From a virus (lineage: Duplodnaviria; Caudoviricetes): a stretch of 63,265 nucleotides of DNA. Under the pieces are notes generated by a model. The model ran no database searches. It was not told where the DNA came from and was given only the letters and a program-made list of their open reading frames with translations. The translations under genes and the position numbers were made by a program. Shown here one piece after another: positions 7,482-63,265 of the stretch. How positions within the stretch are numbered: the first letter of the stretch is position 1; each line of letters opens with the position of its first letter. The DNA is taken from positions 1-63,265 of the IMG/VR virus record IMGVR_UViG_3300009414_000002; one strand, given 5' to 3'.

Positions 7482-8216
7482 GTGGCGAGGAACTATGTAG
7501 GGGAGTATTTTGATAACCACGGCGCGCTTAGAGCGTTGTGTGGATTCTCTGCTTCGTCGCCAACGGATGACGATCTGACGACTGCGACTGCGCGGGCCGT
7601 TCAAATCGCTGAAAAAGCGATGGGCGGTCAGCGTGGTTTCGCTGAAACCAAAACATTGATTGTGTTTGGAAGCGGCGTTCGCGACCTGTACGTTCCGTAT
7701 CCGTTGTATTCGATCACTAGCATTGCTGAAGAGAACAAGTCTGGCTTGCTTACTGCAGGCGCCACGACTGGCTACACGCTTCTTTCCACCACCGTCATGG
7801 CAGATGGTGGCTGGGATGAGTTTCGCGTGTATCCGAGGATTGAAAAATACGACAGGACCAGTAAATGGAGCAACCATTTGCGGTATACCATTATTGGTTC
7901 ATGGGGTATGGTCACCGAAGACGGAACGACGCCTGAAGACATGAAACTGGCACTCGCCCGCCTCGTGGTTTTGAATAGCCATGTGGCTGGGGATGAAGAG
8001 GCGATCTTTCGGCGTAAACTTGGTAATATCGTCACCCACAGGGTTGGCGGTAGAACGGTCAGATTCAGGGGCTCATCGGTTGGCAAGTCGAATTTGATTG
8101 CCGAGCGTTGGGTATGGGAAACGCTGATGTCTTACCGCGTCGATCACATCAGCAGCTCTTCGAAGAGGATTGAAGACGTTCAGGCTTCTAGGCAGGAGCA
8201 AAGGAAAGGAATTTAG
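7482..8216 (+). CDS. Head-tail adaptor/connector (gp6/gp15-like)
   Basis: G.WG....PEDMKLALARLV motif; GGAGG RBS; position. Confidence 0.65.
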   Translation: MARNYVGEYFDNHGALRALCGFSASSPTDDDLTTATARAVQIAEKAMGGQRGFAETKTLIVFGSGVRDLYVPYPLYSITSIAEENKSGLLTAGATTGYTLLSTTVMADGGWDEFRVYPRIEKYDRTSKWSNHLRYTIIGSWGMVTEDGTTPEDMKLALARLVVLNSHVAGDEEAIFRRKLGNIVTHRVGGRTVRFRGSSVGKSNLIAERWVWETLMSYRVDHISSSSKRIEDVQASRQEQRKGI

Positions 8217-8218
8217 TC

Positions 8219-8545
8219 ATGGCAGCAACTAAGAAGCGCGTTCACTTGAATCAGAGCCGAGAGGTTCTTTTTAGTTTCAACTCCACCGGGAGAACAGTCC
8301 GACTGGCTTCAACGGAAGTTCTTGACGAATGCGAACTCGAGGAGTTGGATGATGCGTGGGTTGAAGCCATTGAAGACGTAGACCCGCCTGCACCCAAAGA
8401 GACAGAGAAGAAAGCATCTTCCAAAAAGAAGAGGCGAGCAAAGAAGAAAGACGGAACGTATGTCGCAGATGATCCCGCGACACCCGATGTGAACGAAGCG
8501 TGGGAAGACGGGAAAGGTCCAAACGCAAAGGACAAAGGTAAGTAA
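8219..8545 (+). CDS. Hypothetical protein with DGTYVADDPATPDVNEAW motif
   Basis: ORF with AGGA RBS; the motif resembles one I recall from small phage head-region proteins. Confidence 0.55.
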   Translation: MAATKKRVHLNQSREVLFSFNSTGRTVRLASTEVLDECELEELDDAWVEAIEDVDPPAPKETEKKASSKKKRRAKKKDGTYVADDPATPDVNEAWEDGKGPNAKDKGK

Positions 8546-8877
8546 TGGCTCGCTACGGAAGAAATGCAAATCGTACGACTAGGTCGGTCACCGGAACCAA
8601 TAATGTTGCTGAGACTGGGGCAACGGTAACGCTGACACGAGAGCTCTCAACCGCAACAGGCAAACCTGTCTTTGACAATTGCGCGTTGTACTACCAAAAC
8701 GTCGGCACCACTGATGACTCGGTTTATGCCGTTGTGGATGGAACATCGTTCACTGTGGCCGCAGGCACGGCAATCAAAGGCGTTGTGACTTCAGTTGGCC
8801 CACATCCAGATTCGTACATTGTTGAAGCAACCATCGCTTCTAGTGATTCAATCACTTGCACCCTTTTGGAGTGGTAA
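8545..8877 (+). CDS. Hypothetical, possibly virion protein
   Basis: Coupled TAATG start; beta-rich composition. Confidence 0.5.
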   Translation: MARYGRNANRTTRSVTGTNNVAETGATVTLTRELSTATGKPVFDNCALYYQNVGTTDDSVYAVVDGTSFTVAAGTAIKGVVTSVGPHPDSYIVEATIASSDSITCTLLEW

Positions 8878-8879
8878 AC

Positions 8880-9104
8880 ATGGATTCGGCCAAAAATGCT
8901 CTCAAGAGCAAAACGATTCTAAGCGGCATAGCAACGATTGTGGTGGCTGCCCTGATGATTGCCCAAGAAAACGGCTGGCTAGCGCTTCCAGAGGCCGTTG
9001 CGGGCTTGTTGGAGTATGTTCTCGTTGCCACCGGAGCCGGCGCTTGCTACGGCAGGGTCAAAGCAAACACGGTGATCGGAAAGCCCACCGGGGCAGATGG
9101 TTGA
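8880..9104 (+). CDS. Putative holin (2 TM)
   Basis: Two hydrophobic helices, KSKT motif, directly before the endolysin. Confidence 0.65.
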   Translation: MDSAKNALKSKTILSGIATIVVAALMIAQENGWLALPEAVAGLLEYVLVATGAGACYGRVKANTVIGKPTGADG

Positions 9105-27622: not shown

Positions 27623-30610
27623 ATGGCTACAAATCACCAGCAGTTCAGGCCAGAGTATTTGGTTCCATTCGGATACTCGGACATAAAGTCCTACACGGTT
27701 GGATGGATGGACACGGCTCTCGCTCACTGCTTGAACATTCAGTTCGAAGGTGCTGCCGCTCAAATCACTAATTACGCCACTGTTTCGCTTACAGGCACCC
27801 CTCCAGATCAGCGCGTGATAATGACCGCAACCGGTCTTCCTTCAGGAACAACGGACTACAAAGCAATTGCCGTTGAAGGGAATCAAGGGGTGGTGGTAAA
27901 CGCGGACCCTTACAAAACCCGAATGCTTCGTTACGTCAACGGTCAATCGATTTTCGGCCTTACTGACTTGTGGGATGCCCCGATAGAAATGGATTCGGGC
28001 AAGGACTACCACGTCGGACTTCGGGCGAATGATTACCCGGTTGAGTCCCGTCTTTCAGATAGCGGCGCATACCAGTACACGAGATTTGCAGAAGGAATTG
28101 GAGAGGTTGGAGATCCAAACACCGTCACAGACAATGGCAACTCAACGATAACCTTCAGGGTGAATACCGTATGTGGAGGGTATGCGTGGCCCAACACAAG
28201 CACTACTTCAAAGAGACACGTTTCAATCTGGCTGGATACGCCACTGACATCGCAATCGAGAACTGAAGCTCAAACAATCGCAACTTCAACCGGAACTGGG
28301 AATGCCATTTTCCACGGCACTGTGGATGCTGATGGCTCAAACATTGAAGTCACTGTTCCTCACACGATGGGCCAAACTACAATTTCCACCACAGCCGCAC
28401 ACTACAAAGTGATGTGCCACGGGTTTACCGTGACAGACAAGGCTGTCTTGAACATGACCACATACACGGAAACGCTCTCTGGCGTTGCTGTTAAACCGTA
28501 TGTGGTGGTTGCTGAAGTCGATGGAGCCACCGGAACGATAAGCTACGCGTCGGCAGCGCTTTTGACTCAGCCAAACATGGCGACCGTCAGTCTTAATTTC
28601 GCACAGCTTGCGAAAGACATTTATTTCAATACGACTGCAACTTTGGACAATGACGGTAATCCGAATTTGCCAGAGCCACTTATCAAATTGGTTTGGAGAC
28701 TGTTTAGTTCGTGGAAAGTCCAAAATCAACGCGGACCTGACAAGCCAGGGAGTTATCTTGGATCAAGCGACGAGCAAAGGCTTTGGAACGCTTCACTGGC
28801 GGTAGTCATTTCCGATGCCGCAACCAACAGGTTGACTGTAACTGGCTTGACCGAGCCAAACTGGACAATCGCCCAAACGCAAACATCCAAAGCGTCCAAT
28901 TGGATTTGTTCAAAAATAGTTTCAAGTACAGGAGCTTATGTTGGGTCAGGTGGTTCTCCATACAGCGGACTCGGAACTCTTGCGACGGTTTTGAATCCAG
29001 ACGCAATAGACGACTTCAATGCTCCATCTTTTGGATACGAAACGTTTGCAGACACAAACGGGGTTAAGTTCAACTGGGCTGCGTTCCAGCACATCGTTAC
29101 GGCTCCCGGGTGGCATTACATCGTTGCCGTATGTGAACCCGCATTCCCAGATTCCGCAGTGTTAGCAACATATGAAGCCACGCCAAGGGTCACCGTTCGC
29201 CTCCACGTAATACCTGCTTCGGTATACGGGTGGTCTAACGGAGCCACCGGAACGTACAAGGAAGTTTTGGAAGATGGGTTTTTCCCAGTTGGGTGTTTCA
29301 ACGTCGTTTCGGTAAGCCCGGTTGTTTTGGACAGCTTTGCAGCAAACACCCAAATAGCCAGAGTCGAGCAATTCCGTGGGGTGAATCGGCATCTATCAAC
29401 TGGAAGTGGGTATTTTGCAGATGGCACCGCAGCCACGATGGGAGATGTTTTCCGCTACCCAGCCATCGGAAAAGACAAATCCAGAGCTCTCGAAACAATT
29501 GGTGAAGTAGCCAACAGGCCGGTTTGGGCGACGTACATACAGCCGAACAGCACGGTTAGTGGTTTTACGCTGACCACAGCGATGACTGAAACAAACACGT
29601 ACCTTTATAAATACGAAGGCTACTCGACACCTACCTTGTTCGGTCGGGCGTCAGAAATTCATAACGTTGAATGGGCATCTGGATCTCACGGGTCAACGAC
29701 TGCCGATGACGAAGGCGTGTCTCTTAAACTCGGAATGGATACCGAGGATTTTCAAATAACGGCTTTAAGGCACGCTGTCGATGGCGACAAACTGTACATC
29801 CATAGAGACGTTAACCACGCTTACCTTCACATTAACCAGCGTGGTGGTGGTGCTGTGGATACGGTCGATGGGATGAGGCCGCGGGTTGAAGTTCCAGATT
29901 TGCATTTCATCGGAGATACTGATGGTGGGACCAATTTAGGAAAAATACATTATGAGCCCGTTCCGCTCACCACTGGAGTAGCCGGGTACTACGGCAGCGG
30001 ATCTGCGATCCCCGCTCGTTTCCACGAGATACCCATTACTGGTGACTATATTGGGTGGGCATGGAATGATGGCTACGCGAATGTCAACAACGTAGATAAT
30101 TATGTCCTCTTCCCGCTTCCTTACCAAGCTGGAAACGCACTTATGTACGACGCGACGTACAACCCGAACTTTGGGCATTGGAGATTCAAAGGTTTTTACG
30201 CGAACATTCGTTTCACGACGACTACCACAATCGCAGATTCTCAAGTCCGCTTTTGCCTTATAAAGCAGCATCTTTCTTTAGACCATACAGCCAATAACGG
30301 GTTCGATTGGGATCAGACTGGTGGAACAGATGTTGGAAATTTGGAATGTATCCCTCTCGTGACTTACACCGGCGCGAGCACGAGTACACACGGGCAGCAG
30401 TTATCTAGTGCTTTCAACGAGGGCGTGGTTTTTATTTACGCTGGTGCTGGACCCGGTGCCGAACCTTCCGCTCCAACTGGGGTGATTGCGACCAACGACC
30501 CTCAGATTTGGTACCTCCGAGTTGACGATGTTTCCACCAATGGCGGGGGTACTAATTCGGCAATTTATCTCACGGCTTTGTCTATTGCTTGGGGACGGGA
30601 TCAGATTTAG
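27623..30610 (+). CDS. Tail fibre / receptor-binding protein
   Basis: 995 aa, Thr/Gly/Ser-rich, last gene of the tail operon. Confidence 0.65.
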   Translation: MATNHQQFRPEYLVPFGYSDIKSYTVGWMDTALAHCLNIQFEGAAAQITNYATVSLTGTPPDQRVIMTATGLPSGTTDYKAIAVEGNQGVVVNADPYKTRMLRYVNGQSIFGLTDLWDAPIEMDSGKDYHVGLRANDYPVESRLSDSGAYQYTRFAEGIGEVGDPNTVTDNGNSTITFRVNTVCGGYAWPNTSTTSKRHVSIWLDTPLTSQSRTEAQTIATSTGTGNAIFHGTVDADGSNIEVTVPHTMGQTTISTTAAHYKVMCHGFTVTDKAVLNMTTYTETLSGVAVKPYVVVAEVDGATGTISYASAALLTQPNMATVSLNFAQLAKDIYFNTTATLDNDGNPNLPEPLIKLVWRLFSSWKVQNQRGPDKPGSYLGSSDEQRLWNASLAVVISDAATNRLTVTGLTEPNWTIAQTQTSKASNWICSKIVSSTGAYVGSGGSPYSGLGTLATVLNPDAIDDFNAPSFGYETFADTNGVKFNWAAFQHIVTAPGWHYIVAVCEPAFPDSAVLATYEATPRVTVRLHVIPASVYGWSNGATGTYKEVLEDGFFPVGCFNVVSVSPVVLDSFAANTQIARVEQFRGVNRHLSTGSGYFADGTAATMGDVFRYPAIGKDKSRALETIGEVANRPVWATYIQPNSTVSGFTLTTAMTETNTYLYKYEGYSTPTLFGRASEIHNVEWASGSHGSTTADDEGVSLKLGMDTEDFQITALRHAVDGDKLYIHRDVNHAYLHINQRGGGAVDTVDGMRPRVEVPDLHFIGDTDGGTNLGKIHYEPVPLTTGVAGYYGSGSAIPARFHEIPITGDYIGWAWNDGYANVNNVDNYVLFPLPYQAGNALMYDATYNPNFGHWRFKGFYANIRFTTTTTIADSQVRFCLIKQHLSLDHTANNGFDWDQTGGTDVGNLECIPLVTYTGASTSTHGQQLSSAFNEGVVFIYAGAGPGAEPSAPTGVIATNDPQIWYLRVDDVSTNGGGTNSAIYLTALSIAWGRDQI

Positions 30611-31275
30611 TCCGTCGTTCCAGACGCAACGGCCCATGCCGACAACAAGCCAGCAATCGCCGTTTCATCCGGCGTCAAATGGTCTTTCAGCGTACTTCCC
30701 TCTTCGCAAATCTTAAGTCGCGCATTGACGTACTTTTCATACAGTTCTCGAGGTAGTTCCATGTGCAGTGGAATGAGATCGTTTTCCAATGCTTGGCCTT
30801 CCAACTCCCCTGCGCCAACTTGATTCGGGTTGATGTCCGCATCGCTTAAGTCTGCAATTGCTGAAAGTGCGTCCAACTCATCTTCCAAAAACGGGAACAG
30901 TGCGTCTGCATCCATTGCTTGAATGTTTTCCACCAGCTTTGCGAGCATGATTTGATCTGGTTCGCCGCGAAGATGATTCAAGATCAACGTCAATTGCTTG
31001 GCTTGCGACTCGCTTATCTTGCCGAGTGTGTTCACTTCGACATCTTCCCATCCGAGTTCCTTCAACAGTTTCCAACGGTGGAACCCGTCGATGATTTCGA
31101 ACCCGGCAGACTCCTCGACTTGCCTGACGGTAATGGGCTGAACGTATCCGAACTTCTCCAAGCTCTCGCGCTCTTTTTCGTAGATTTCATGGTCCATTTG
31201 ATTTGGATTCCACGAGTTCGGTCTTAGTTCGTTGATGTCAACTTTGATCACATTGATATTGCTTACTGTTCCCAT
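30607..31275 (-). CDS. ParB-N domain protein (DNA-modification-cluster associated)
   Basis: L.PN.WNPN, SL.KFG..QPI.V, EIIDGFHRW. Confidence 0.85.
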   Translation of the reverse strand: MGTVSNINVIKVDINELRPNSWNPNQMDHEIYEKERESLEKFGYVQPITVRQVEESAGFEIIDGFHRWKLLKELGWEDVEVNTLGKISESQAKQLTLILNHLRGEPDQIMLAKLVENIQAMDADALFPFLEDELDALSAIADLSDADINPNQVGAGELEGQALENDLIPLHMELPRELYEKYVNARLKICEEGSTLKDHLTPDETAIAGLLSAWAVASGTTD

Positions 31276-32084
31276 GACACACCTTTCCTGTCCCAAAATT
31301 CAGTTATTTCTCTCGCCATCTGCGTGTACTTTCTGATAACCATCGGAACGCAATCGTGCGCCCTGTTTCTAGATAGCCTCCTCTTTGCCGTTGCTTTGCT
31401 CGGATGCCACCTTTTCCCAACTTGGAACTTTCCTCGTGGGTCCGCAACGAGTCCGTACTTGTAAGGATTCGTCCACGTCGTTGAATCCGCTGAATACAAA
31501 GGCGCTCGATACCACACTTCCGTCTTGGTGATTGCGAACCCATGAACTTTGACGCCAGCGTCATACGCCCGCATTACCATAGCCGGCGCGTCTTTCAACC
31601 CGTCGTTGGTAAACCCAACGTAGTCGAACTCTTCCAGCCATTCATCCCACACCTTGTAAGCGTTTGGAATGATGCTGTGCCAAACGGGCAATACGCGATG
31701 ACCTTCGTCTTGAAGCTCTTTTCTCATTTCCAGAACAAGCCCGTATGGGATGAGAGCGTAGATGTCCAGTTCGGCAACCCAGAGAAGTTGCCCTTTCATT
31801 TTGCGGGCAAGTTTTTTCAACTTGTCGAACGTGTCACGCACTTTTGGAACTTTGGTTCTTGGTTTTGTCGGCGTATGCCGTCTCCAAGCATCAGACCCGT
31901 AAACATTGATCAGCGTGTGTGCCCCGGAATCCAAAACGAAATCTGCCCCGTCATAGAGGTCTATCTCGATGTTTTTTTCTGCCAATGGGCTCCCAAGCCG
32001 CCCTAGCAAGTCCGGGTTTTGGTTGATTGCTTCTGCAATCATTGGCTCGGACTCCTGCCCGCCACCAGCAAAGTAAACTTTCAT
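31263..32084 (-). CDS. dpdA: TGT-fold DpdA-like 7-deazaguanine DNA transglycosylase
   Basis: FVLDSGA, ELD, PVWH, KVHGF and SADSTTW motifs; in a cluster with folE/queD/queE. Confidence 0.7.
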   Translation of the reverse strand: MKVYFAGGGQESEPMIAEAINQNPDLLGRLGSPLAEKNIEIDLYDGADFVLDSGAHTLINVYGSDAWRRHTPTKPRTKVPKVRDTFDKLKKLARKMKGQLLWVAELDIYALIPYGLVLEMRKELQDEGHRVLPVWHSIIPNAYKVWDEWLEEFDYVGFTNDGLKDAPAMVMRAYDAGVKVHGFAITKTEVWYRAPLYSADSTTWTNPYKYGLVADPRGKFQVGKRWHPSKATAKRRLSRNRAHDCVPMVIRKYTQMAREITEFWDRKGVSWEQ

Positions 32085-33211
32085 TCCGTAATCCCCGCTG
32101 AAATTGAAGCTATTTTTGAAGACGCCGCTTCATGATCTCGCCACCAGTATTTCCTCATCACATCATCTCTGAAATCAACAACACGTCTCTCTCCCTTCAA
32201 ACACTCAATCATCATGTTGAGGGCTTGTTGCTTTTCTTCATACAAAAACGGGTACCTTTCACTCAACGTGTCATTGAGAATTTGCGGAAGGACCTCTGGA
32301 TAAGATTTGTTGTTTGGTGCGATTGGAAGAGCTCCATTCAGCGCCGCTTCCAAGCATGAGTATCCAAAGTTCTCTTGCTTCGCCAACGAAATCCAGCACG
32401 TCGCCTTGCCAAGAAGGTTCAAATAATCGGGTCGGTCCAAGGGACCCCCATTTGGACCCGCTTGCATGGTCCAGACGAATTCGCCCCTACCGGCGATCTG
32501 AATCGCTCGTTTCGCCCATTTCACTGCGTCGGTCTGGCGTTTTTCGGGGTGATCGCGACCCGTGAACACAATCAACGGTTGCCTGTCGTCTGCTGGCATC
32601 CTCTTGGCAGCAACGTGGTCGTCCGTGTGGAACGGCAATCCGGTGGCATGGACCTTTCGGTCAATGCCTGACTTGTTAACCCTCCAGTGTTCATGGCAAA
32701 GCTCTCGCTTGTGGTGGTTCGTTCCAACGTAGATGTGCCGGAACAGTTGAAGGAACGTGCGTTCGAAGCAACTAACCCACTCGCCATTTGTTTTTCTGGA
32801 CATCGACGCCACGGAATCGCTTGCTGTCCATGACCCGGCATGGAGGATGGCGTCGAAATGGAGTTCGATTCCTTTCATTTGCGCCGCATAAGCAACGCCT
32901 TCGATGCCGGGGAACCATCCGTCCCCCAGCAAAATCACATCCCCGCTTGAAACTTCTCCGGTTTGTATCATCGAGCAAAGCAATGAAATTTGTTTGCTTT
33001 TGTATTTGATTGTTCCGGTTGCGCTCAAAAACTCATGTGATTCAAGGGCTTCTGACATATAGCTCGGGGTGACTGAAGCGACATCCACACCTTTCAGATT
33101 GCCAAGCGATTCTAAAATTCTCTCGTTGAAATGTTTGCAGTACCTCGACGGGATCTCTTCAATGCCGACGTACACTATTTTTTCAGGTGATTTGCGCTTG
33201 GACGTGAACAT
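32081..33211 (-). CDS. GT-B (GT4-like) glycosyltransferase
   Basis: FTGR.HPEK and ENFGYSCLEA (EX7E) motifs. Confidence 0.85.
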   Translation of the reverse strand: MFTSKRKSPEKIVYVGIEEIPSRYCKHFNERILESLGNLKGVDVASVTPSYMSEALESHEFLSATGTIKYKSKQISLLCSMIQTGEVSSGDVILLGDGWFPGIEGVAYAAQMKGIELHFDAILHAGSWTASDSVASMSRKTNGEWVSCFERTFLQLFRHIYVGTNHHKRELCHEHWRVNKSGIDRKVHATGLPFHTDDHVAAKRMPADDRQPLIVFTGRDHPEKRQTDAVKWAKRAIQIAGRGEFVWTMQAGPNGGPLDRPDYLNLLGKATCWISLAKQENFGYSCLEAALNGALPIAPNNKSYPEVLPQILNDTLSERYPFLYEEKQQALNMMIECLKGERRVVDFRDDVMRKYWWRDHEAASSKIASISAGITE

Positions 33212-34169
33212 TGTTCCTCTCTTGAAAGTGACGGACTGTCGCGTCGTTTTCTCCATCTTCCGAAACCGTTACGCGAACCCACGGAATTTCTGGAAATTCA
33301 GAGCAAATTGCAGATGCCAAGGCGTTCCCAATCTCTTCGCACGACGCAGTTTCAAAAATGTTGTTGAGCGTTTTGCACAAAAGATCGTCACAGCATGACT
33401 GGAGTATGTGGAATTCGATTTGACGCGATTTCAAAATCGGAACCGTCGCGGAGCATTTGAACAAATGCCGATGATTTTTCCTCAAATACATGACTTCATC
33501 TGGGGCATCCGGCCAATGATGGAAACCAACGGCTTGGAACCTGACTGTTATCGAAGTGTGTTCGTCGGTTTTTGAATATTCACAACCTTGGCTCAATGGG
33601 CATTCCAAGCAAGCTGGAGTTGTGTTGTGGCAAACCAGTTCGCCAATGTCTTTCAGCGCGATCATCAGGTCGTAGTTGCGATGCCTTGTCATCGTCAATG
33701 ACGCCAAGAATCGCTTTGGATCGCCTTTCAGCCTACTCGCAACCCTGATTATGTGAGCATCCGTTGGTGGTGGAGTGTCGGTTTCACCACGAGCCATTTT
33801 GATCAGAGGTATTGCAGACCCCCAGTCAAATGAAGACTTGGATGCTGGAACGCCTATTTCCCCATCCAGCCACATCGCGACGGAAGTGACGATTGATCTC
33901 TGATACCACGGAAGTGGGAGGTTGCTCAGGCGGTTTTTCTGGGCTTCAGGTGTCAGCTTAAGCCAGTCGCCAAACGTTGAAATTCCGGTGAAAATGCCCT
34001 TGAACTCTGATTCAAGTACCGGTGTGTCCGTGTACTCAAGAAGAGCCAAAGACATGAAAAACACATCCGGTGGACAGTCCGGTGTTCGCCAAGGCAAAGC
34101 TCTTCTTTCGCAATTATGGCTGTAGTAAATGGCAAGTGTGTCTTGTAGGTATTTCAGGTCGCCAGACAA
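33183..34169 (-). CDS. Fusion: MutY/EndoIII-like HhH-GPD [4Fe-4S] domain plus QueD-like T-fold (DpdL-like)
   Basis: RALPWR, DAHIIRV, C-X6-C-X2-C-X5-C; C-terminal GFHHWPDAP, LRKNHRHLF, SCE, VSEDGEN. Confidence 0.75.
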   Translation of the reverse strand: MSGDLKYLQDTLAIYYSHNCERRALPWRTPDCPPDVFFMSLALLEYTDTPVLESEFKGIFTGISTFGDWLKLTPEAQKNRLSNLPLPWYQRSIVTSVAMWLDGEIGVPASKSSFDWGSAIPLIKMARGETDTPPPTDAHIIRVASRLKGDPKRFLASLTMTRHRNYDLMIALKDIGELVCHNTTPACLECPLSQGCEYSKTDEHTSITVRFQAVGFHHWPDAPDEVMYLRKNHRHLFKCSATVPILKSRQIEFHILQSCCDDLLCKTLNNIFETASCEEIGNALASAICSEFPEIPWVRVTVSEDGENDATVRHFQERNNVHVQAQIT

Positions 34170-34193
34170 ATGTTCCTCCTTGCTGTCAGATCG

Positions 34194-34736
34194 TCAAAAA
34201 GCGATGTGCAGGAATTCTGACCTGCAAGCCGCATCTTCTTTCATGCACCCCCTGAGTGCCGATGTTGTTGTTTGTGCGCCGGTTCTCTGGACGCCTCGCA
34301 TGGACATACACAAGTGTTCTGCTTGCAACACAACTCCAGCACCGAGTGGTGCCAGTTGGTTGTAAAGGTAGTCCGCGATTTGATTTGTGAGATATTCTTG
34401 CGTTTGCGGCCTTAGTGAAAACTTGTCCACTACTCGAGCTAGCTTGCTCAACCCGCATATCTTTCCACTTGGATCTGGAATGTACGCGACCACCGCAGTG
34501 CCGAAAAATGGAAGCAAATGATGCTCACAGAACGAATAGAACATTATCTCCGAACAAACGATCATTTCATCTGTGCCGTTTGCAGGAAACGTCGTCAAAT
34601 TAAAGTCTGATCTCGCCTCGAACTCCTTCCACATTCGAGCGACTCGATCTGGCGTTTCAAGAGTGCCTTCAACCCCATTGTGTGGGATTTGAGACAACAT
34701 CGCTTCAACGGCTCCTTTTATGATCGATTCGTTCAT
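34194..34736 (-). CDS. folE: GTP cyclohydrolase I
   Basis: ETP.RVA, CEHHLLPFFG, GLSKLAR, QE.LT, HLCM.MRG. Confidence 0.95.
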   Translation of the reverse strand: MNESIIKGAVEAMLSQIPHNGVEGTLETPDRVARMWKEFEARSDFNLTTFPANGTDEMIVCSEIMFYSFCEHHLLPFFGTAVVAYIPDPSGKICGLSKLARVVDKFSLRPQTQEYLTNQIADYLYNQLAPLGAGVVLQAEHLCMSMRGVQRTGAQTTTSALRGCMKEDAACRSEFLHIAF

Positions 34737-35413
34737 GGCAACCCAATGAACTTGTGTGTTTGGACTGAAAGTCTCCAATCGGTGTTGTTTTTCAAAAACT
34801 CAATGCACTGTGCGGTGTTGTCGCTTGAAATGCGTGGATCAACATCCCACTGGGGTTGGATGTACTTGTGTGAAATGTGCTCGGGTCCGCAAAGCGTTTC
34901 AACTTGCGTGTTCAATTCCAATGGGTCGAACTCTGGGCAAACGACTTTCAACTCATCATAACGCTGAGGAACAAACGGCATTGGGGGCTTTGGGCTCAAT
35001 GTCACCCAAGCCACTTCCTTTGGAAGCTCATTCGAACCATTTGTTTCGACGTGGACTCGAATTGCGTGCCTAGTCATTTGTTTCACAAGTTCCGTGTCGA
35101 TTTGAAGCGACGGTTCCCCACCAGTCATTACCGCAGTGGCTTCGCTGTTGTTGGGCCACAGCTTCCTTATCGTGTGAGCCAGTTCCGATGCCGTGTATTT
35201 GCCTCCAAGTGGACCATCTGTACCCACAAAATCCGTGTCACACCACAACGCACAACGGCCCTTCTCTACGTTCCGCTTGCGGTCCTCTTCGCGCCCCGTC
35301 CATACGTTACACCCCGCATACCGGACGAACACCACGGGACAGCCCGAATAAGCACCCTCGCCTTGAATTGAAAAGTACACTTCTTTAATCGCGTACGTTT
35401 TGTTCTCGTCCAT
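34733..35413 (-). CDS. queE: 7-carboxy-7-deazaguanine synthase (radical SAM)
   Basis: SIQGEG, VFVR..GCN, CDTDF, TGGEP, ETNG, SPK, WRLSVQTHK. Confidence 0.93.
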   Translation of the reverse strand: MDENKTYAIKEVYFSIQGEGAYSGCPVVFVRYAGCNVWTGREEDRKRNVEKGRCALWCDTDFVGTDGPLGGKYTASELAHTIRKLWPNNSEATAVMTGGEPSLQIDTELVKQMTRHAIRVHVETNGSNELPKEVAWVTLSPKPPMPFVPQRYDELKVVCPEFDPLELNTQVETLCGPEHISHKYIQPQWDVDPRISSDNTAQCIEFLKNNTDWRLSVQTHKFIGLP

Positions 35414-35561: not shown

Positions 35562-36005
35562 TTAAGACACAGGGTAGTCAGCCCAGCAGTTTGGGGTTTC
35601 ATACAGACGGACTGACTTGATCTCAACGCCGGTATTGTCCTTGGAGAACAGATCCGAAGCCGTTGAAAACAGAAGTTTTACCATATTTTCGGCTGTTGGA
35701 TTGCATTCCATGATGAATACTTTCATGCTTCGCTCAAGAAAAGCGTCTGCCAAATCGTCGTCTTCATGCAAGATCATCCCGTGGTCCAAATTGAGGTCTA
35801 TCCACGAGCCAAACAGTTCTTTTATGACGGAGAAGTCTACTACCCTACCAATGCCGTCAAGAGAGCCGTCTTCCGCTACGCAGCAAGTCAACTCAACCAC
35901 ATACCGGTGTCCGTGGTAATGTTCACACTTGCCTCCGTGATTTATCAGCCTATGTCCTGCGTCAAACTCGAGCTTCCTTGTGCAGGTCGGTTCTTGTGAA
36001 CTCAA
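35562..36005 (-). CDS. queD: 6-carboxy-5,6,7,8-tetrahydropterin synthase
   Basis: FDAGHR, CEHYHGHRY, VDF, LDH, PTAEN, ETP. Confidence 0.93.
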   Translation of the reverse strand: MSSQEPTCTRKLEFDAGHRLINHGGKCEHYHGHRYVVELTCCVAEDGSLDGIGRVVDFSVIKELFGSWIDLNLDHGMILHEDDDLADAFLERSMKVFIMECNPTAENMVKLLFSTASDLFSKDNTGVEIKSVRLYETPNCWADYPVS

Positions 36006-42610: not shown

Positions 42611-43516
42611 TCAAAAAGGCGCATCGTCCAATGAAATGGAATGCTCTGTCATTTCTTTTTCAGCTTGCGAAAACAGTTCATCGGTTTCGGTTGTGACGGA
42701 TGCAGTTGTTGTTTGTGATTTCATTATTCCAGCTTCAACCCGCTCGTCAGATGCAAACATGGTTAAAAACTCGTTTGCGTTTGCGTTGTCTCGCCACCAT
42801 TTGTCGCTGTGATACCCGGTCAAACACTCACGTAGTTGCTCGAGTGACCAGTTTTTCAAGCGAGCTCTGGCTTTGGAAATCCTCTTTGGCGTGACTCTGG
42901 ACTTGCCCGAACGAAACAGCTTACTCCATTCGCTTATCAAGCTATCTGCTTGACCATCGTTCACTGGTGGTTGCTTTTTCCTCGGCTTTCGTTCAGGGGT
43001 TGGCTTTTCGGCTGGTTTCGCGTTTGGAGTGAACAAGTGCGATACTGGAATTTCTGAGATTTTAGCTTCCAAAAGTTTTCCAAGCTCCAACCCGTATGTT
43101 TCGCACTCCTCTTGAACGCGCTTTGCTACGTCTGGTTTCGAAAGCAGCTTTTTGTTGTGTGCAAACCAACCGTTTTTGAAACCATCACTTTCCAGCGTTA
43201 TGACTTGCCGGACTGCCGCCAAAGTGAATTTCCACGAACCTTGCTGTTCTTTGAAGAACGTTTTCACCCACATGAGGTGTTCGTCACCGTCGTAGACGAT
43301 GAGATCACGCTGCTCCAGTTCCACCATGCCCACGAGAAGACGTTTCGCGTCCATTCGCGACTCAAAGCACGCAACGTCCAAATGAAGCCGGTAGACGCCA
43401 GATGCTTGCGTGTGCGTGTTGCAACACAGGTAAAAATAAAGACCCATCGCGTCGAACGACAAACCAAGTCTGTCGGGGTCCGACCAATATTCGTCATTCC
43501 ACAGACGTTTCGCCAT
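42611..43516 (-). CDS. Replication initiator / replisome organiser-like protein
   Basis: YWSD...LS.....LYFYL..N.H....G.Y N-terminal motif; upstream of the helicase. Confidence 0.7.
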   Translation of the reverse strand: MAKRLWNDEYWSDPDRLGLSFDAMGLYFYLCCNTHTQASGVYRLHLDVACFESRMDAKRLLVGMVELEQRDLIVYDGDEHLMWVKTFFKEQQGSWKFTLAAVRQVITLESDGFKNGWFAHNKKLLSKPDVAKRVQEECETYGLELGKLLEAKISEIPVSHLFTPNAKPAEKPTPERKPRKKQPPVNDGQADSLISEWSKLFRSGKSRVTPKRISKARARLKNWSLEQLRECLTGYHSDKWWRDNANANEFLTMFASDERVEAGIMKSQTTTASVTTETDELFSQAEKEMTEHSISLDDAPF

Positions 43517-44132
43517 TGGAACCCTCTTTACTGTCTGCTTCATCGGCCAAATCACTGCAGTGTTTCACCAACTCCTGCCACTTCAAGACACCAAACTCGC
43601 TACACCCCTCTGCGTTGTGATGAGCTTCAAACTCAAGCTGCCTTGCGCCCGTGAACGAAGAAGACAATTCCTTTGTTTCTTTGTCCACTTTATCTAGAAG
43701 CTCTTGTGTGCCTTCATCCGTACTCACCAAGCGCTCTGGATATCCAAACGGAACAATTACGCCGGGAGGTAAACAAAACAGGTGATACTGATTTGCCGTG
43801 TCCACAAGCCGCTTCTCACATGGGAAAAGTTGCACCGCTTCACACGCCGTCCCGCAAAGCTCGTTTTTGATTCTCTGGAAGTCTCTCCAGTACCCCTTTA
43901 TTGCTTTTTTGTCGAGCCGCTTTATCGATAAGTGCGCCAAAGGAGGATTTCTTCGCGAATCGACAGGAACGCAATAACGAACTCCAACCTGATAGCGGCT
44001 GTTTACCCACACTTCATCTTCGCCGGAAAGTTCTTTTATCTTTTTCGGCACATCGACTTGTTTGAATTGCGTCCAAGTTGGGTTCTCTTTTTTCATGTGA
44101 CGCTTGCTTTGTTTCGATGTCTTGTTCGGCAT
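43494..44132 (-). CDS. Conserved hypothetical protein
   Basis: N..YQV, HLSIKR.D, WR.FQ.IKNEL.G, EAV..FP...LVD.AN.YHL. Confidence 0.7.
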   Translation of the reverse strand: MPNKTSKQSKRHMKKENPTWTQFKQVDVPKKIKELSGEDEVWVNSRYQVGVRYCVPVDSRRNPPLAHLSIKRLDKKAIKGYWRDFQRIKNELCGTACEAVQLFPCEKRLVDTANQYHLFCLPPGVIVPFGYPERLVSTDEGTQELLDKVDKETKELSSSFTGARQLEFEAHHNAEGCSEFGVLKWQELVKHCSDLADEADSKEGSNGETSVE

Positions 44133-44212
44133 TGCCATTTTCTCCAATCGCAGGGCGTTGGCGGGACAACACCCGCCACAACCCCACGCATTGAGCACCG
44201 TTCATTGCTTCA

Positions 44213-63049: not shown

Positions 63050-63265
63050 AAAAATTGCGAACAAGTTTTTCATCGACACCGGCAAGGACAGCCATCCTTC
63101 CAAATCAAGCGATCCATATGCCGATGCCGGGAAAGACACCGCAAAAGTCCAAGAAGCGCAAGATGTTGAAGAACAGTTTGCCGCTTGGTACGACAAGGGA
63201 ATCATTGAACCGCCAGATCCGGGACTCGTTTCCCTAATCATCGGCGCATCCCAGTCAAACATCGT
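63042..63265 (+). CDS. Portal protein 5' part (continues at position 124 after the overlap)
   Basis: ATG overlapping the MTase stop; in frame with the portal ORF through the repeat. Confidence 0.85.
   Translation, partial: MSEKIANKFFIDTGKDSHPSKSSDPYADAGKDTAKVQEAQDVEEQFAAWYDKGIIEPPDPGLVSLIIGASQSNI
63143..63265. repeat. Terminal direct repeat (right copy)
   Basis: Identical to 1..123. Confidence 0.95.

Follow-up and report, generated by a model that had tools for sequence, protein, structure and literature searches.

To our knowledge, DpdL is the sole route to 7-deazaguanine DNA that has been proposed. Its printed signature, LxxxHRHxF, replaces the CxxxHGH of QueD, and the published model has it acting on the free base (PMC10516641); E. 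coli carrying dpdL and dpdA of phiST and ACP17 formed no dDG, and missing partners are suspected by the authors of that study. Natural fusions are the cheapest clue to such partners. According to the same paper, DpdA3 'may insert CDG', and dCDG is found in viral DNA. Two further systems bear on the locus described here: bacterial DpdB, described as a ParB-like ATPase (PMC10164549), and the Dag glycosylases, host proteins of the HhH superfamily that target 7-deazaguanine phages, 17 of 22 candidates having cut the plating of a DG phage (bioRxiv 10.1101/2025.10.29.685425).

Here we describe a gene in which a MIG/MutY-like Fe-S domain is joined to DpdL, located in a complete 63-kb marine phage genome (the window, 63,265 nucleotides, IMG/VR record IMGVR_UViG_3300009414_000002), and show its architecture, homology, context, rarity and residue loss. 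The fusion is real, rare and undescribed; as the original prediction from this DNA had supposed, literature searches found no description of it, and the main text of PMC10516641 nowhere uses 'glycosylase', 'MutY' or 'glycosyltransferase' (0 occurrences of each), although the supplements of that paper might list fused forms.

One uninterrupted gene encodes both domains

The fused gene and the elements that define its extent are as follows.

33183..34169, minus strand: whole fused gene, 328 aa, TTG start (ORF list; frame without stops; independent contigs identical)
34175..34181, minus strand: Shine-Dalgarno AAGGAGG, 5 nt 5' of the TTG start (sequence reading)
33555..33581, minus strand: linker EYSKTDEHT, nine residues, without internal start codon (sequence reading)

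Positions 33183-34169 were confirmed to be one genuine, uninterrupted two-domain gene; the single-gene fusion that had been predicted was borne out by a check of the junction in read contigs, which showed no missed stop or indel. Across the junction, the bridging Logan contigs from three of four runs (15 runs are listed) showed 0 differences and 0 indels, the fourth yielding fragments only and some of the runs possibly being the source sample itself, and the identical fusion protein is recorded on 39 + 13 contigs. The FolE stop codon (34194-34196) lies 5' of the AAGGAGG of the fusion gene, and linker codons 197-215 contain neither an in-frame ATG, GTG or TTG nor a ribosome-binding site. That an error of sequencing or assembly merged two adjacent genes, or that the ORF was wrongly extended, is suggested by the public JGI gene call P0162 (12 contigs), which is 290 aa long and begins at the ATG of codon 39; such an artefact is nonetheless barely credible in view of the contigs of three runs that agree over the junction, the linker devoid of start codons, the strong ribosome-binding site at the TTG, and the occurrence of the same fusion in the relatives P0002 and L003. 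We prefer the 328-aa form to P0162 because of this ribosome-binding site and because residues 12-38 are conserved with the relatives, L12, Y16, R23, L25-R28 and P33 being invariant. Scans for promoters and terminators gave counts no higher than those of shuffles, and among the sequencing runs listed no RNA run contained the fusion sequence.

Every motif named beforehand was present in the translation, namely R23-ALPW-R28, S40-LALLEY-T47, D137-AHIIR-V143, C180-X6-C187-X2-C190-X5-C196 and L229-RKNHRHL-F237, the last of these (LRKNHRHLF) lying at exactly 33459-33485, where it had been placed.

The DpdL half and its pathway context

33231..33554, minus strand: DpdL-family domain, predicted T-fold, aa 206-313, with LRKNHRHLF (33459-33485), SCE and SEDGEN (PHROG 17812, ACP17 homologue, profile, Atlas)

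Judged by sequence comparison, the C-terminal half is an intact member of the DpdL family and is the genome's sole copy. It matched PHROG 17812 (8.5e-15) and the ACP17 homologue (3e-16, 35% identity), L229RKNHRHLF237 conforms to the LxxxHRHxF signature, and all 13 invariant columns of a 40-sequence DpdL alignment are kept, including the metal-binding HRH. A DpdL-family profile had its single match in the genome at 33228-33560 (1.7e-44), and the Atlas model of this half gave a TM of 0.88 to a viral PTPS cluster; Pfam PTPS had no match to the fusion protein. The likeness of DpdL to QueD was weak here at the level of sequence: the DpdL profile found only QueD 4ntm in the PDB, weakly (0.65), and hhalign gave this profile a probability of 1.4% against the phage's own QueD.

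The genes that surround the fusion are the following.

34194..34778, minus strand: FolE (GTP cyclohydrolase I), directly upstream of the fusion (PF01227, E 8e-57)
34733..35413, minus strand: QueE (CDG synthase; TIGR04508, E 2.7e-60, 203.8 bits, under the 240-bit cut-off)
35562..36005, minus strand: QueD (CPH4 synthase; PF01242, E 1.1e-28)
32081..33256, minus strand: GT-B-like glycosyltransferase homologue (PF00534, E 5e-4, sub-threshold)
31263..32084, minus strand: DpdA-like DNA transglycosylase (phrog_887, E 2.7e-17)
30607..31296, minus strand: ParB_N-domain protein, possible DpdB analogue (PF02195, E 9.4e-11)

The presence of FolE, QueE, QueD and DpdA supports the reading of this genome as carrying a deazaguanine cluster, and these four genes in the absence of QueC are the gene content that goes with DpdL; QueC was sought at E ≤ 1 throughout the complete genome with its terminal repeats and was absent, while the control matched in 14 of 14 genomes. 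A tblastn search with the DpdA-like protein returned genes annotated as DpdA, e.g., in Pseudomonas phage Iggy (47 records), and the ParB-like protein is, by analogy, a possible counterpart of DpdB. The 5' end of the GT-B-like gene overlaps the 3' end of the fusion by up to 74 nt; a homolog of this gene adjoins the ACP17 DpdL (1e-25), and it was found with DpdL in five of five loci of one comparison and in 39 of the 80 IMG/VR DpdL loci. No cultured phage was matched when the 8-kb cluster was searched by blastn.

The MIG/MutY-like half

33582..34169, minus strand: MIG/MutY-like HhH-GPD [4Fe-4S] domain, aa 1-196 (P0002 alignment, family profile against PDB, Atlas model, motif columns)
33582..33632, minus strand: Fe-S loop C180-X6-C187-X2-C190-X5-C196 (TIGR01084 at aa 163-205; PDB MutY chains at aa 171-197)

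The fusion protein's own sequence reaches MutY models via its Fe-S loop alone, so that the assignment to the HhH-GPD superfamily rests on its relatives and on a predicted model. The NCBIfam mutY model TIGR01084 matched only aa 163-205 (9.1e-7), at 28.7 bits and below the 286.5-bit cut-off, PDB MutY chains matched at aa 171-197, and Pfam HhH-GPD (PF00730) had no match in the fusion protein (E ≤ 0.1) or genome-wide (E ≤ 1). An alignment with P0002 covered residues 12-311 (7.8e-24 against 1.84 billion library proteins), and P0002 in turn matched TIGR01084 over its residues 5-222 (2.7e-19) as well as Pfam HhH-GPD (7e-5, sub-threshold) and PTPS (5.6e-3). A profile of the 10-sequence family identified 38 PDB chains at E ≤ 1e-3, all 38 of them HhH-GPD glycosylases matched over the full catalytic domain, the best being MIG (1kea, 8e-22), MUTYH (5.3e-21) and G. 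stearothermophilus MutY (1.3e-18). The ESM Atlas model of the fusion protein (mean pLDDT 0.73, pTM 0.47) aligned through residues 1-203 with TM values of 0.65-0.71 over 188-193 residues, all eight rows being HhH-GPD. The family profile, the P0002 alignment and the DpdL-family profile together support the MutY-like and the DpdL-like assignments alike, and on the strength of homology and the predicted fold we place the N half in a small phage family of MIG/MutY-like HhH-GPD [4Fe-4S] domains.

Within this family our copy is altered at the very motifs that had been flagged as degenerate. HMMER pairs E. coli MutY residue 37, the catalytic Glu of SEVMLQQT, with L41, in a low-scoring stretch, and the family alignment has Glu in the L41 column in all nine relatives; these carry (V/A)EGLLA(Q/M)T and GxGPYTA without exception (9/9), and the fusion protein has neither motif, reading DWGSAIPL for the hairpin, which two alignments place differently. 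Changes to the basic cluster-loop residues are likewise confined to this copy. Retained are PWR and all four Cys ligands, three of them conserved throughout the 10 family members and the fourth in 9 of 10, together with D137, the counterpart of the catalytic Asp (D138 in E. coli MutY), which is conserved in 10 of 10. Where each relative, left out in turn, keeps 55 of 55-61 invariant positions, the fusion protein keeps 28 and has lost 27 of the 55 positions invariant in the nine, a low retention that may reflect its distance from a tight high-GC clade and not relaxed selection. E45 lies four residues past L41, on what is presumably the same helix face. AlkA-type HhH-GPD enzymes function with Asp alone, and since E45 is also nearby, inactivity does not follow from the missing Glu.

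A Pfam search for the NUDIX-like 8-oxoG recognition domain found no match in the fusion protein. The order of HhH-GPD domain, short linker and purine-binding C domain parallels that of MutY, and together with this result it might suggest a non-enzymatic look-alike in which the T-fold stands in for the 8-oxoG-reading C domain and would recognise 7-deazaguanine in the opposite strand. We regard this as most improbable: the C half keeps every residue that is invariant in stand-alone DpdL, HRH among them, the genome, which in other respects suits the DpdL pathway, has no second DpdL, and the half that has decayed is the glycosylase half.

Relatives, rarity and ancestry

Two distant lineages of high GC content (P0002 and L003) have the same fusion and an identical order of genes, and because the order in L003 (FolE, fusion, (rSAM), GT, DpdA, ParB) is the cassette order of our phage, shared ancestry of the cassette is indicated. 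In a quick tree of 153 DpdL domains, 84 of whose 150 inner branches are open, the C half did not group with P0002 and L003; an AU test on a 39-row subset, chosen after seeing the tree, did not reject a topology that unites the three in one clade (p-AU 0.365). The fusion is otherwise rare. A MutY-like domain was found at none of the 80 other IMG/VR DpdL loci and at none of the three cultured-phage DpdL loci examined, and further fusions were present in 0 of 30 candidate stretches from an IMG/VR alignment search and in 0 of 171 genome contigs. With the fusion protein alone, an IMG/VR search returned one DpdL relative only and nothing close enough for dN/dS, and a word-index search found only the protein itself.

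Members of the MutY-like family were also present in phages (5 of 5 from IMG/VR) without FolE, QueD, this type of DpdA or the GT, and P0152 and P0154 are stand-alone members of the family. Where the phage has no deazaguanine genes, the relatives retain the residues of the glycosylase while their DpdL half is vestigial (L004) or absent, which indicates that the two halves are separable; the DpdL profile matched the C-terminal extensions of P0155 and L004 weakly in hhalign (0.086 and 0.025, respectively), and the BLASTP alignment with P0002 extends through the L004 extension. An obligate coupling of the N half to DpdL is disfavoured by the absence of the domain from 80 of 80 and 3 of 3 other DpdL loci, by the occurrence of the family in phages without deazaguanine genes, and by the loss in this copy of residues that all nine relatives keep. 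A further protein, P0080, is a fusion of DpdA with DpdL (phrog_887 + phrog_17812), consistent with DpdL being placed beside DNA-base enzymes.

These data bear on two readings, akin to those offered with the original prediction, in which the N half would serve DpdL or the modified genome by binding. In the first, DpdA would insert CDG, the HhH-GPD domain would evert dCDG, and in-situ decarboxylation by the T-fold would yield dDG. This would fit the statements in PMC10516641 on possible CDG insertion by DpdA3 and on dCDG in viral DNA, the failure of DpdL and DpdA alone to give dDG in E. coli (PMC10516641), the joining of DpdL to DpdA in P0080, and the ability of host HhH-fold glycosylases to recognise 7-deazaguanine in DNA (bioRxiv 10.1101/2025.10.29.685425). 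We nevertheless think this base-flipping role unlikely, as the published model assigns DpdL a free-base substrate (PMC10516641). The rarity of the domain among DpdL loci also means that it is not a general requirement, the hairpin that would contact DNA is degenerate here, and an everted base goes into the glycosylase pocket and not into the T-fold site. Active sites of T-fold enzymes form between subunits.

In the second, the domain, catalytically dead, would protect the modified genome as a decoy or shield, by binding either 7-deazaguanine DNA or the host's Dag-type glycosylases. A kept fold with lost catalytic residues would suit such a binder, and according to the preprint (bioRxiv 10.1101/2025.10.29.685425) Dag glycosylases attack 7-deazaguanine phages and its discussion expects phage countermeasures. 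This is very unlikely, however, since the relatives retain the catalytic residues and live in phages without deazaguanine genes, and a shield that must act stoichiometrically is hard to reconcile with fusion to an enzyme in a genome of 63 kb.

In all nine relatives the catalytic set is complete, a Tyr that aligns with the GKYT of MIG standing at the position of the EndoIII Lys, and a DNA methyltransferase lies downstream of the family member in four of five IMG/VR loci, as the next called gene in three and 3.5 kb away in one. MIG is said, in work of Horst and Fritz from 1996, to counteract 5-methylcytosine deamination. The MIG gene lies beside a methylase gene. In one alternative, the N half would be a still-active monofunctional glycosylase for modification-linked repair or quality control, acting on bases mispaired with, or damaged near, modified guanine, and would be fused to DpdL only because the two were operon neighbours. 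Its case is made by the intact relatives, by these methyltransferase genes, by the retention of the fold, PWR, the four Cys and the catalytic Asp, and by the position of E45 one helical turn past the lost Glu. We consider it rather unlikely, given that the Glu, the hairpin glycines and the basic cluster-loop residues are all changed in this copy alone, that 27 of 55 family-invariant positions are lost, and that methylases are common in phages, which makes adjacency weak evidence for a family activity that is itself putative.

More speculatively, and quite unlikely in our estimation, the phage family may supply the attack in base-excision modules resembling restriction-modification, its fusion to DpdL coupling weapon and immunity. 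The weapon may be a purine glycosylase dependent on N7 protonation and directed at the unmodified DNA of hosts or competitors, while methylation (in methylase-linked members) or 7-deazaguanine, which is without N7, would make the DNA of the phage itself immune. The copy described here would be disarmed, and may have been retained to target DpdL to DNA, possibly for decarboxylation of dCDG in DNA.

Proposed function and significance

The explanation we favour, with a confidence that is evenly poised, is that the DpdL half functions in 7-deazaguanine synthesis and that the N half is a non-catalytic Fe-S or DNA-tethering remnant. Most likely, following the published proposal, the DpdL half would convert 7-carboxy-7-deazaguanine to 7-deazaguanine, which DpdA would then exchange into DNA. 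The N half would derive from the phage family of monofunctional MIG/MutY-like Fe-S glycosylases, its joining to DpdL being placed in an ancestor that this phage shares with the two high-GC lineages. In the present phage the catalytic Asp, the fold and the ligands of the [4Fe-4S] cluster appear to be kept, and the Glu that serves as general acid, the helix-hairpin-helix GxG and the basic cluster-loop residues appear to be lost. Because of these losses base excision is most likely gone; the N half would persist as a structural appendage of DpdL or as one that tethers it to DNA or a partner. In this proposal, what we infer is that DpdL acts as a decarboxylase, that glycosylase activity is gone and that the N half tethers.

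DpdL has been fused at least twice to base-handling DNA proteins, to the MutY/MIG-like Fe-S domain (here, in P0002 and in L003) and to DpdA (P0080), and a GT-B-like gene lies alongside it in about half of the loci examined; these fusions and this association provide concrete constructs for probing DpdL's partners. The analysis also brings to light a small phage family of intact, putative MIG/MutY-like glycosylases beside DNA methylases. For the gene described here the answer is likely to be modest, as its glycosylase half looks decayed.

Comparison with known systems

The C half shares with stand-alone DpdL the LxxxHRHxF signature, a predicted QueD-like T-fold, 35% identity to the ACP17 homologue, and the context of FolE, QueD, QueE and DpdA without QueC. 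Stand-alone DpdL is, however, only about 120–130 aa long (127 aa in ACP17), and the fusion adds a 200-aa N-terminal Fe-S HhH-GPD domain. With MutY and MUTYH (TIGR01084; PDB 1kg2, 3n5n and 1rrq) this domain has in common the six-helix-barrel and Fe-S fold, PWR, the Asp and C-X6-C-X2-C-X5-C, whereas it is without the catalytic Glu, apparently without the GxG hairpin, and without the NUDIX-like C domain, and falls under the TIGR01084 cut-off. The top solved match of the family profile is MIG, the T/U:G mismatch glycosylase of Methanothermobacter (1kea), whose arrangement of Glu, Asp and Tyr the relatives have (GPYT versus GKYT); our phage's protein, by contrast, has neither the Glu nor, apparently, the Tyr-bearing hairpin, and the mismatch activity of the family is putative.

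The bacterial DpdA-DpdB machinery for preQ0 DNA (PMC10164549) likewise pairs a transglycosylase with a DNA-acting accessory, and in our phage a ParB-like gene adjoins DpdA; the accessory described there is, however, a ParB-like ATPase and not an HhH-GPD protein, and the locus described here has no QueC or preQ0. The Dag defence glycosylases (bioRxiv 10.1101/2025.10.29.685425) are also of the HhH superfamily and tied to phage 7-deazaguanine DNA, but they are host-encoded, active and antiviral, whereas the present domain comes from a phage, forms one protein with a biosynthetic enzyme and is probably inactive.

Deazaguanine Gene Cluster and the Fused Gene

The record is a complete IMG/VR virus genome (63,265 bp). 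Its ends form an exact direct terminal repeat of 123 nt (1–123 and 63143–63265), it has no tRNA genes, and the sequencing runs that match this stretch are labelled marine metagenome. Its minus strand carries a compact gene row at 30.6–36.0 kb:

35562–36005, minus strand, QueD
34733–35413, minus strand, QueE
34194–34778, minus strand, FolE
33183–34169, minus strand, fused ORF
32081–33256, minus strand, GT-B-like glycosyltransferase homolog (GT)
31263–32084, minus strand, DpdA-like transglycosylase
30607–31296, minus strand, ParB_N protein

QueC was not found in the whole genome at E ≤ 1 by a search that was positive in 14 of 14 control genomes; gene content of this kind has been associated with DpdL and 2'-deoxy-7-deazaguanine (PMC10516641).

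The original prediction read the fused ORF as a MutY-like glycosylase domain joined to a DpdL-like T-fold, and on translation all of the motifs it named were present where it had placed them, with LRKNHRHLF mapping to 33459–33485. The ORF is a single gene, as contigs of three runs span the junction with 0 differences and 0 indels (contigs from 4 of 15 listed runs were compared, the fourth run gave fragments only, and the source sample of the window may account for several of these runs). The start codon is TTG, with AAGGAGG 5 nt ahead, and the interdomain linker EYSKTDEHT contains no start codon; that the fusion is an artefact has, in our judgment, a very low probability. A public 290-aa gene call starts at the ATG of codon 39 and would lack residues 12–38, a stretch that relatives conserve. 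At its 3' end the fusion runs into the GT ORF (33183–33256), by 74 nt with ATG 33256 as the GT start codon or by 29 nt with the ATG that follows; where GT begins is uncertain because its homologs align only from residue 31 (Acidovorax phage ACP17) or ~residue 69 (L003, a metagenomic locus).

The C-Terminal Half Is a DpdL Family Member

Residues 206–313 matched PHROG 17812 (E 8.5e-15), whose function is not annotated, and a 127-aa protein adjoining QueE in ACP17 (35% identity, 3e-16), one of two phages whose dpdL was tested (PMC10516641). A profile of 40 DpdL family members had this region as its sole match in the genome (1.7e-44), with 13 of 13 invariant columns kept (the His of GFHHW, HRH, R..EF, SCE and ED); the family comprises 1640 representatives at E ≤ 1e-3 and has at least 509 matches in IMG/VR. 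Of the predicted QueD-like DpdL domain, the DpdL part stands on family and motif; sequence evidence for kinship with QueD is weak (a single PDB match, to QueD 4ntm, at 0.65, and no hhalign match to the window's own QueD), and the T-fold comes from the ESM Atlas model of the protein, which aligned to a viral PTPS-annotated cluster with a TM of 0.88 by row. On every feature examined this half belongs by sequence to the DpdL family, for which enzymatic activity is only proposed family-wide.

The N-Terminal Half Belongs to a Small Family of HhH-GPD Domains

On its own, the N-terminal half (residues 1–196) had no Pfam match and reached TIGR01084 (9.1e-7, residues 163–205) and PDB MutY (0.026) through its Fe-S loop only. 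An exhaustive search identified P0002, a 356-aa protein that aligns to residues 12–311 (7.8e-24) and therefore has the same two-domain architecture, and P0098, which aligns over residues 9–198; the other 147 of the 150 best matches covered the DpdL part only. A profile search added seven proteins (P0151–P0157), of which four stand alone (230–234 aa), two (335 and 340 aa) have a C-terminal extension and one is an N-truncated 248-aa fragment, and a metagenome scan added the 355-aa fusion of L003. At E ≤ 1e-3 a 10-sequence profile of the family matched 38 PDB chains, each of them an HhH-GPD glycosylase and matched over the whole catalytic domain, the best being MIG 1kea (8e-22), human MUTYH (5.3e-21) and MutY (1.3e-18). 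Since, in addition, P0002 residues 5–222 matched TIGR01084 (2.7e-19) and all 8 rows returned for residues 1–203 of the Atlas model were HhH-GPD clusters (TM 0.65–0.71), we place this half in the Fe-S HhH-GPD superfamily, as predicted. In the architecture and family assignments taken alone we are highly confident.

Residue Loss in the Window Protein

The predicted degeneracy of the catalytic-Glu and HhH motifs agrees with the family alignment, in which all nine relatives have (V/A)EGLLA(Q/M)T, containing the general-acid Glu, and GxGPYTA, the helix-hairpin-helix with MIG's Tyr, against SLALLEYT and DWGSAIPL in the window protein. All 10 sequences share the Asp of PxD..RV and three of the Cys, and 9 of 10 keep the fourth Cys; the cluster loop of the window protein has no Arg or Lys, unlike that of P0002. 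Among the nine relatives 55 positions never vary, and the window protein retains 28 of them; in a leave-one-out control every relative retained 55 of 55–61. This comparison reflects distance as well as constraint because the relatives form a tight high-GC group. Setting the retained Asp and Cys beside the altered Glu and hairpin motifs, we regard a still-active repair or quality-control glycosylase as improbable.

Distribution of the Fusion and Its Separate Halves

A search for the fusion in other phages, as had been suggested, found it with an intact DpdL half in P0002 and L003, which together with the window cluster make three lineages. L003 has the gene order of the window (FolE, fusion, GT, DpdA, ParB) with one extra gene between fusion and GT, a SPASM/twitch-type radical SAM gene (1630–2559) whose best NCBIfam matches, to metalloenzyme maturases and MoaA, all score well under their cut-offs; QueE was rejected for it. 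Among cultured phages the fusion occurs in none (seven matching records, 0 covering 80% of the protein). The MutY-like domain, fused or separate, was absent within ~7 kb from all 80 IMG/VR DpdL loci searched (the best 80 of at least 509) and from the fetched DpdL regions of phages ACP17, BCSR5 and BUCT-ZZ01.

Five IMG/VR phages, two with complete genomes, encode MIG/MutY-like family members, and FolE, PTPS, window-type DpdA and GT were found in none of them. A DNA methyltransferase (C5, MT-A70 or N6_N4) is the next called gene downstream in three, and a fourth phage has one at a distance of 3.5 kb; these four members keep intact catalytic residues and could be modification-linked repair glycosylases or halves of a base-excision restriction-modification-like pair. 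The family member/DNA methyltransferase (C5, MT-A70, N6_N4, N6_Mtase) loci are:

L005, 9604–12288
L006, 9595–10446
L007, 8909–10108
L004, 12491–13426

The complete L004 phage genome, which lacks FolE, QueD and DpdA, encodes a 312-aa family member (7983–8921) with a C-terminal extension, which aligns with P0002 to the end of the latter's DpdL half; as gaps delete HHW..HRH and SCE, the extension is a vestigial DpdL half. The glycosylase half is thus kept without deazaguanine genes, and here the DpdL half is kept with a decayed glycosylase half, so the halves decay independently. A DUF7694 protein is the next called gene after the MutY-like gene in a further locus (L008, 9526–10761), and another lies in the window replication module (43494–44198, minus strand).

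Neighboring Genes and Other DpdL Fusions

By HMM, a GT homolog lies beside or near DpdL in five of five loci (window, L003, ACP17, BCSR5 and BUCT-ZZ01):

Window, 32081–33256, minus strand
L001, 4966–5994
L009, 11089–12201
L010, 6349–7515
L003, 2474–3601

It was also found within ~7 kb in 39 of the best 80 of at least 509 IMG/VR DpdL loci, some near-duplicates. Its fold assignment is weak (PF00534, 5e-4; PDB GT4/glycogen synthase, 0.05–0.1), and glycosyltransferases go unmentioned in the main text of PMC10516641; the gene is a candidate for one of the "other unknown enzymes" on which DpdL may depend. The ParB_N protein overlaps the DpdA end, carries a DGFHRW motif, is conserved in L003 (4580–4843) and was detected in 5 of the same best 80 of at least 509 loci. 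Bacterial DpdB is a ParB-like ATPase required by DpdA (PMC10164549), and by analogy the ParB_N protein may be a phage counterpart.

Further DpdL fusions occur in P0118, P0138, P0071, P0111, P0123, P0088 and P0005 and at loci L024, L036, L049 and L060. The added domains include a PIG-L/LmbE-like N domain (PF02585, 1.4e-4, sub-threshold), an uncharacterized 240-aa N domain and a recurrent ~190-aa C domain (..EAEGP..LFVPG..GAGN..); the last matches nothing in Pfam or PDB and in four loci directly precedes GT. In Synechococcus phage BUCT-ZZ01 (L010) the QueE-QueD-FolE-DpdL cluster includes an annotated xanthine-guanine phosphoribosyltransferase (1441–1902), a hint that in some DpdL phages one step acts at the level of nucleotides.

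Possible Function and Comparison with Known Glycosylases

The 362-aa protein P0080 is a natural DpdA-DpdL fusion (phrog_887, annotated queuine tRNA-ribosyltransferase/DpdA, at residues 107–235; phrog_17812, the DpdL family, at 253–360), which supports the broader view that DpdL works physically near the DNA base-exchange enzyme. Following the published proposal (PMC10516641), the DpdL half would turn 7-carboxy-7-deazaguanine (CDG) into 7-deazaguanine for DpdA, while the N-terminal half would have ceased base excision and would act as an Fe-S structural, DNA-tethering or partner-tethering module; we infer all three steps, and give their combination about an even chance. The N-terminal half might instead be a base-flipping adaptor for decarboxylation of dCDG within DNA; PMC10516641 notes that DpdA3 "may insert CDG", and we hold such an adaptor to be doubtful, more so than an active glycosylase. 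A decoy against host Dag glycosylases is very improbable, and a MutY-like reader architecture still less likely.

We have demonstrated one polypeptide with two folds (the C-terminal one a predicted T-fold), its pathway context and its loss of residues. Among the papers listed on DpdL, CDG decarboxylase, 7-deazaguanine and glycosylases, we found none that describes an HhH-GPD or MutY-like domain in such phage clusters, nor one that reports DpdL in fused form; the original prediction, too, gave the fusion as not known to be described (for PMC10516641 this covers the main text, with 0 mentions of glycosylase or MutY). The fusion is real and undescribed; it is also rare, and half-decayed in this phage. 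It adds a new domain architecture to the known DpdL enzyme family, whose activity is a proposed one, and is useful for designing an experiment to validate DpdL. Among characterized glycosylases, MutY has a NUDIX-like domain and the window protein has none, and orthology to MutY is ruled out on this and on score (28.7 bits against a TIGR01084 cut-off of 286.5); MIG shares its hairpin Tyr with the relatives, whereas the window protein's hairpin reads DWGSAIPL.
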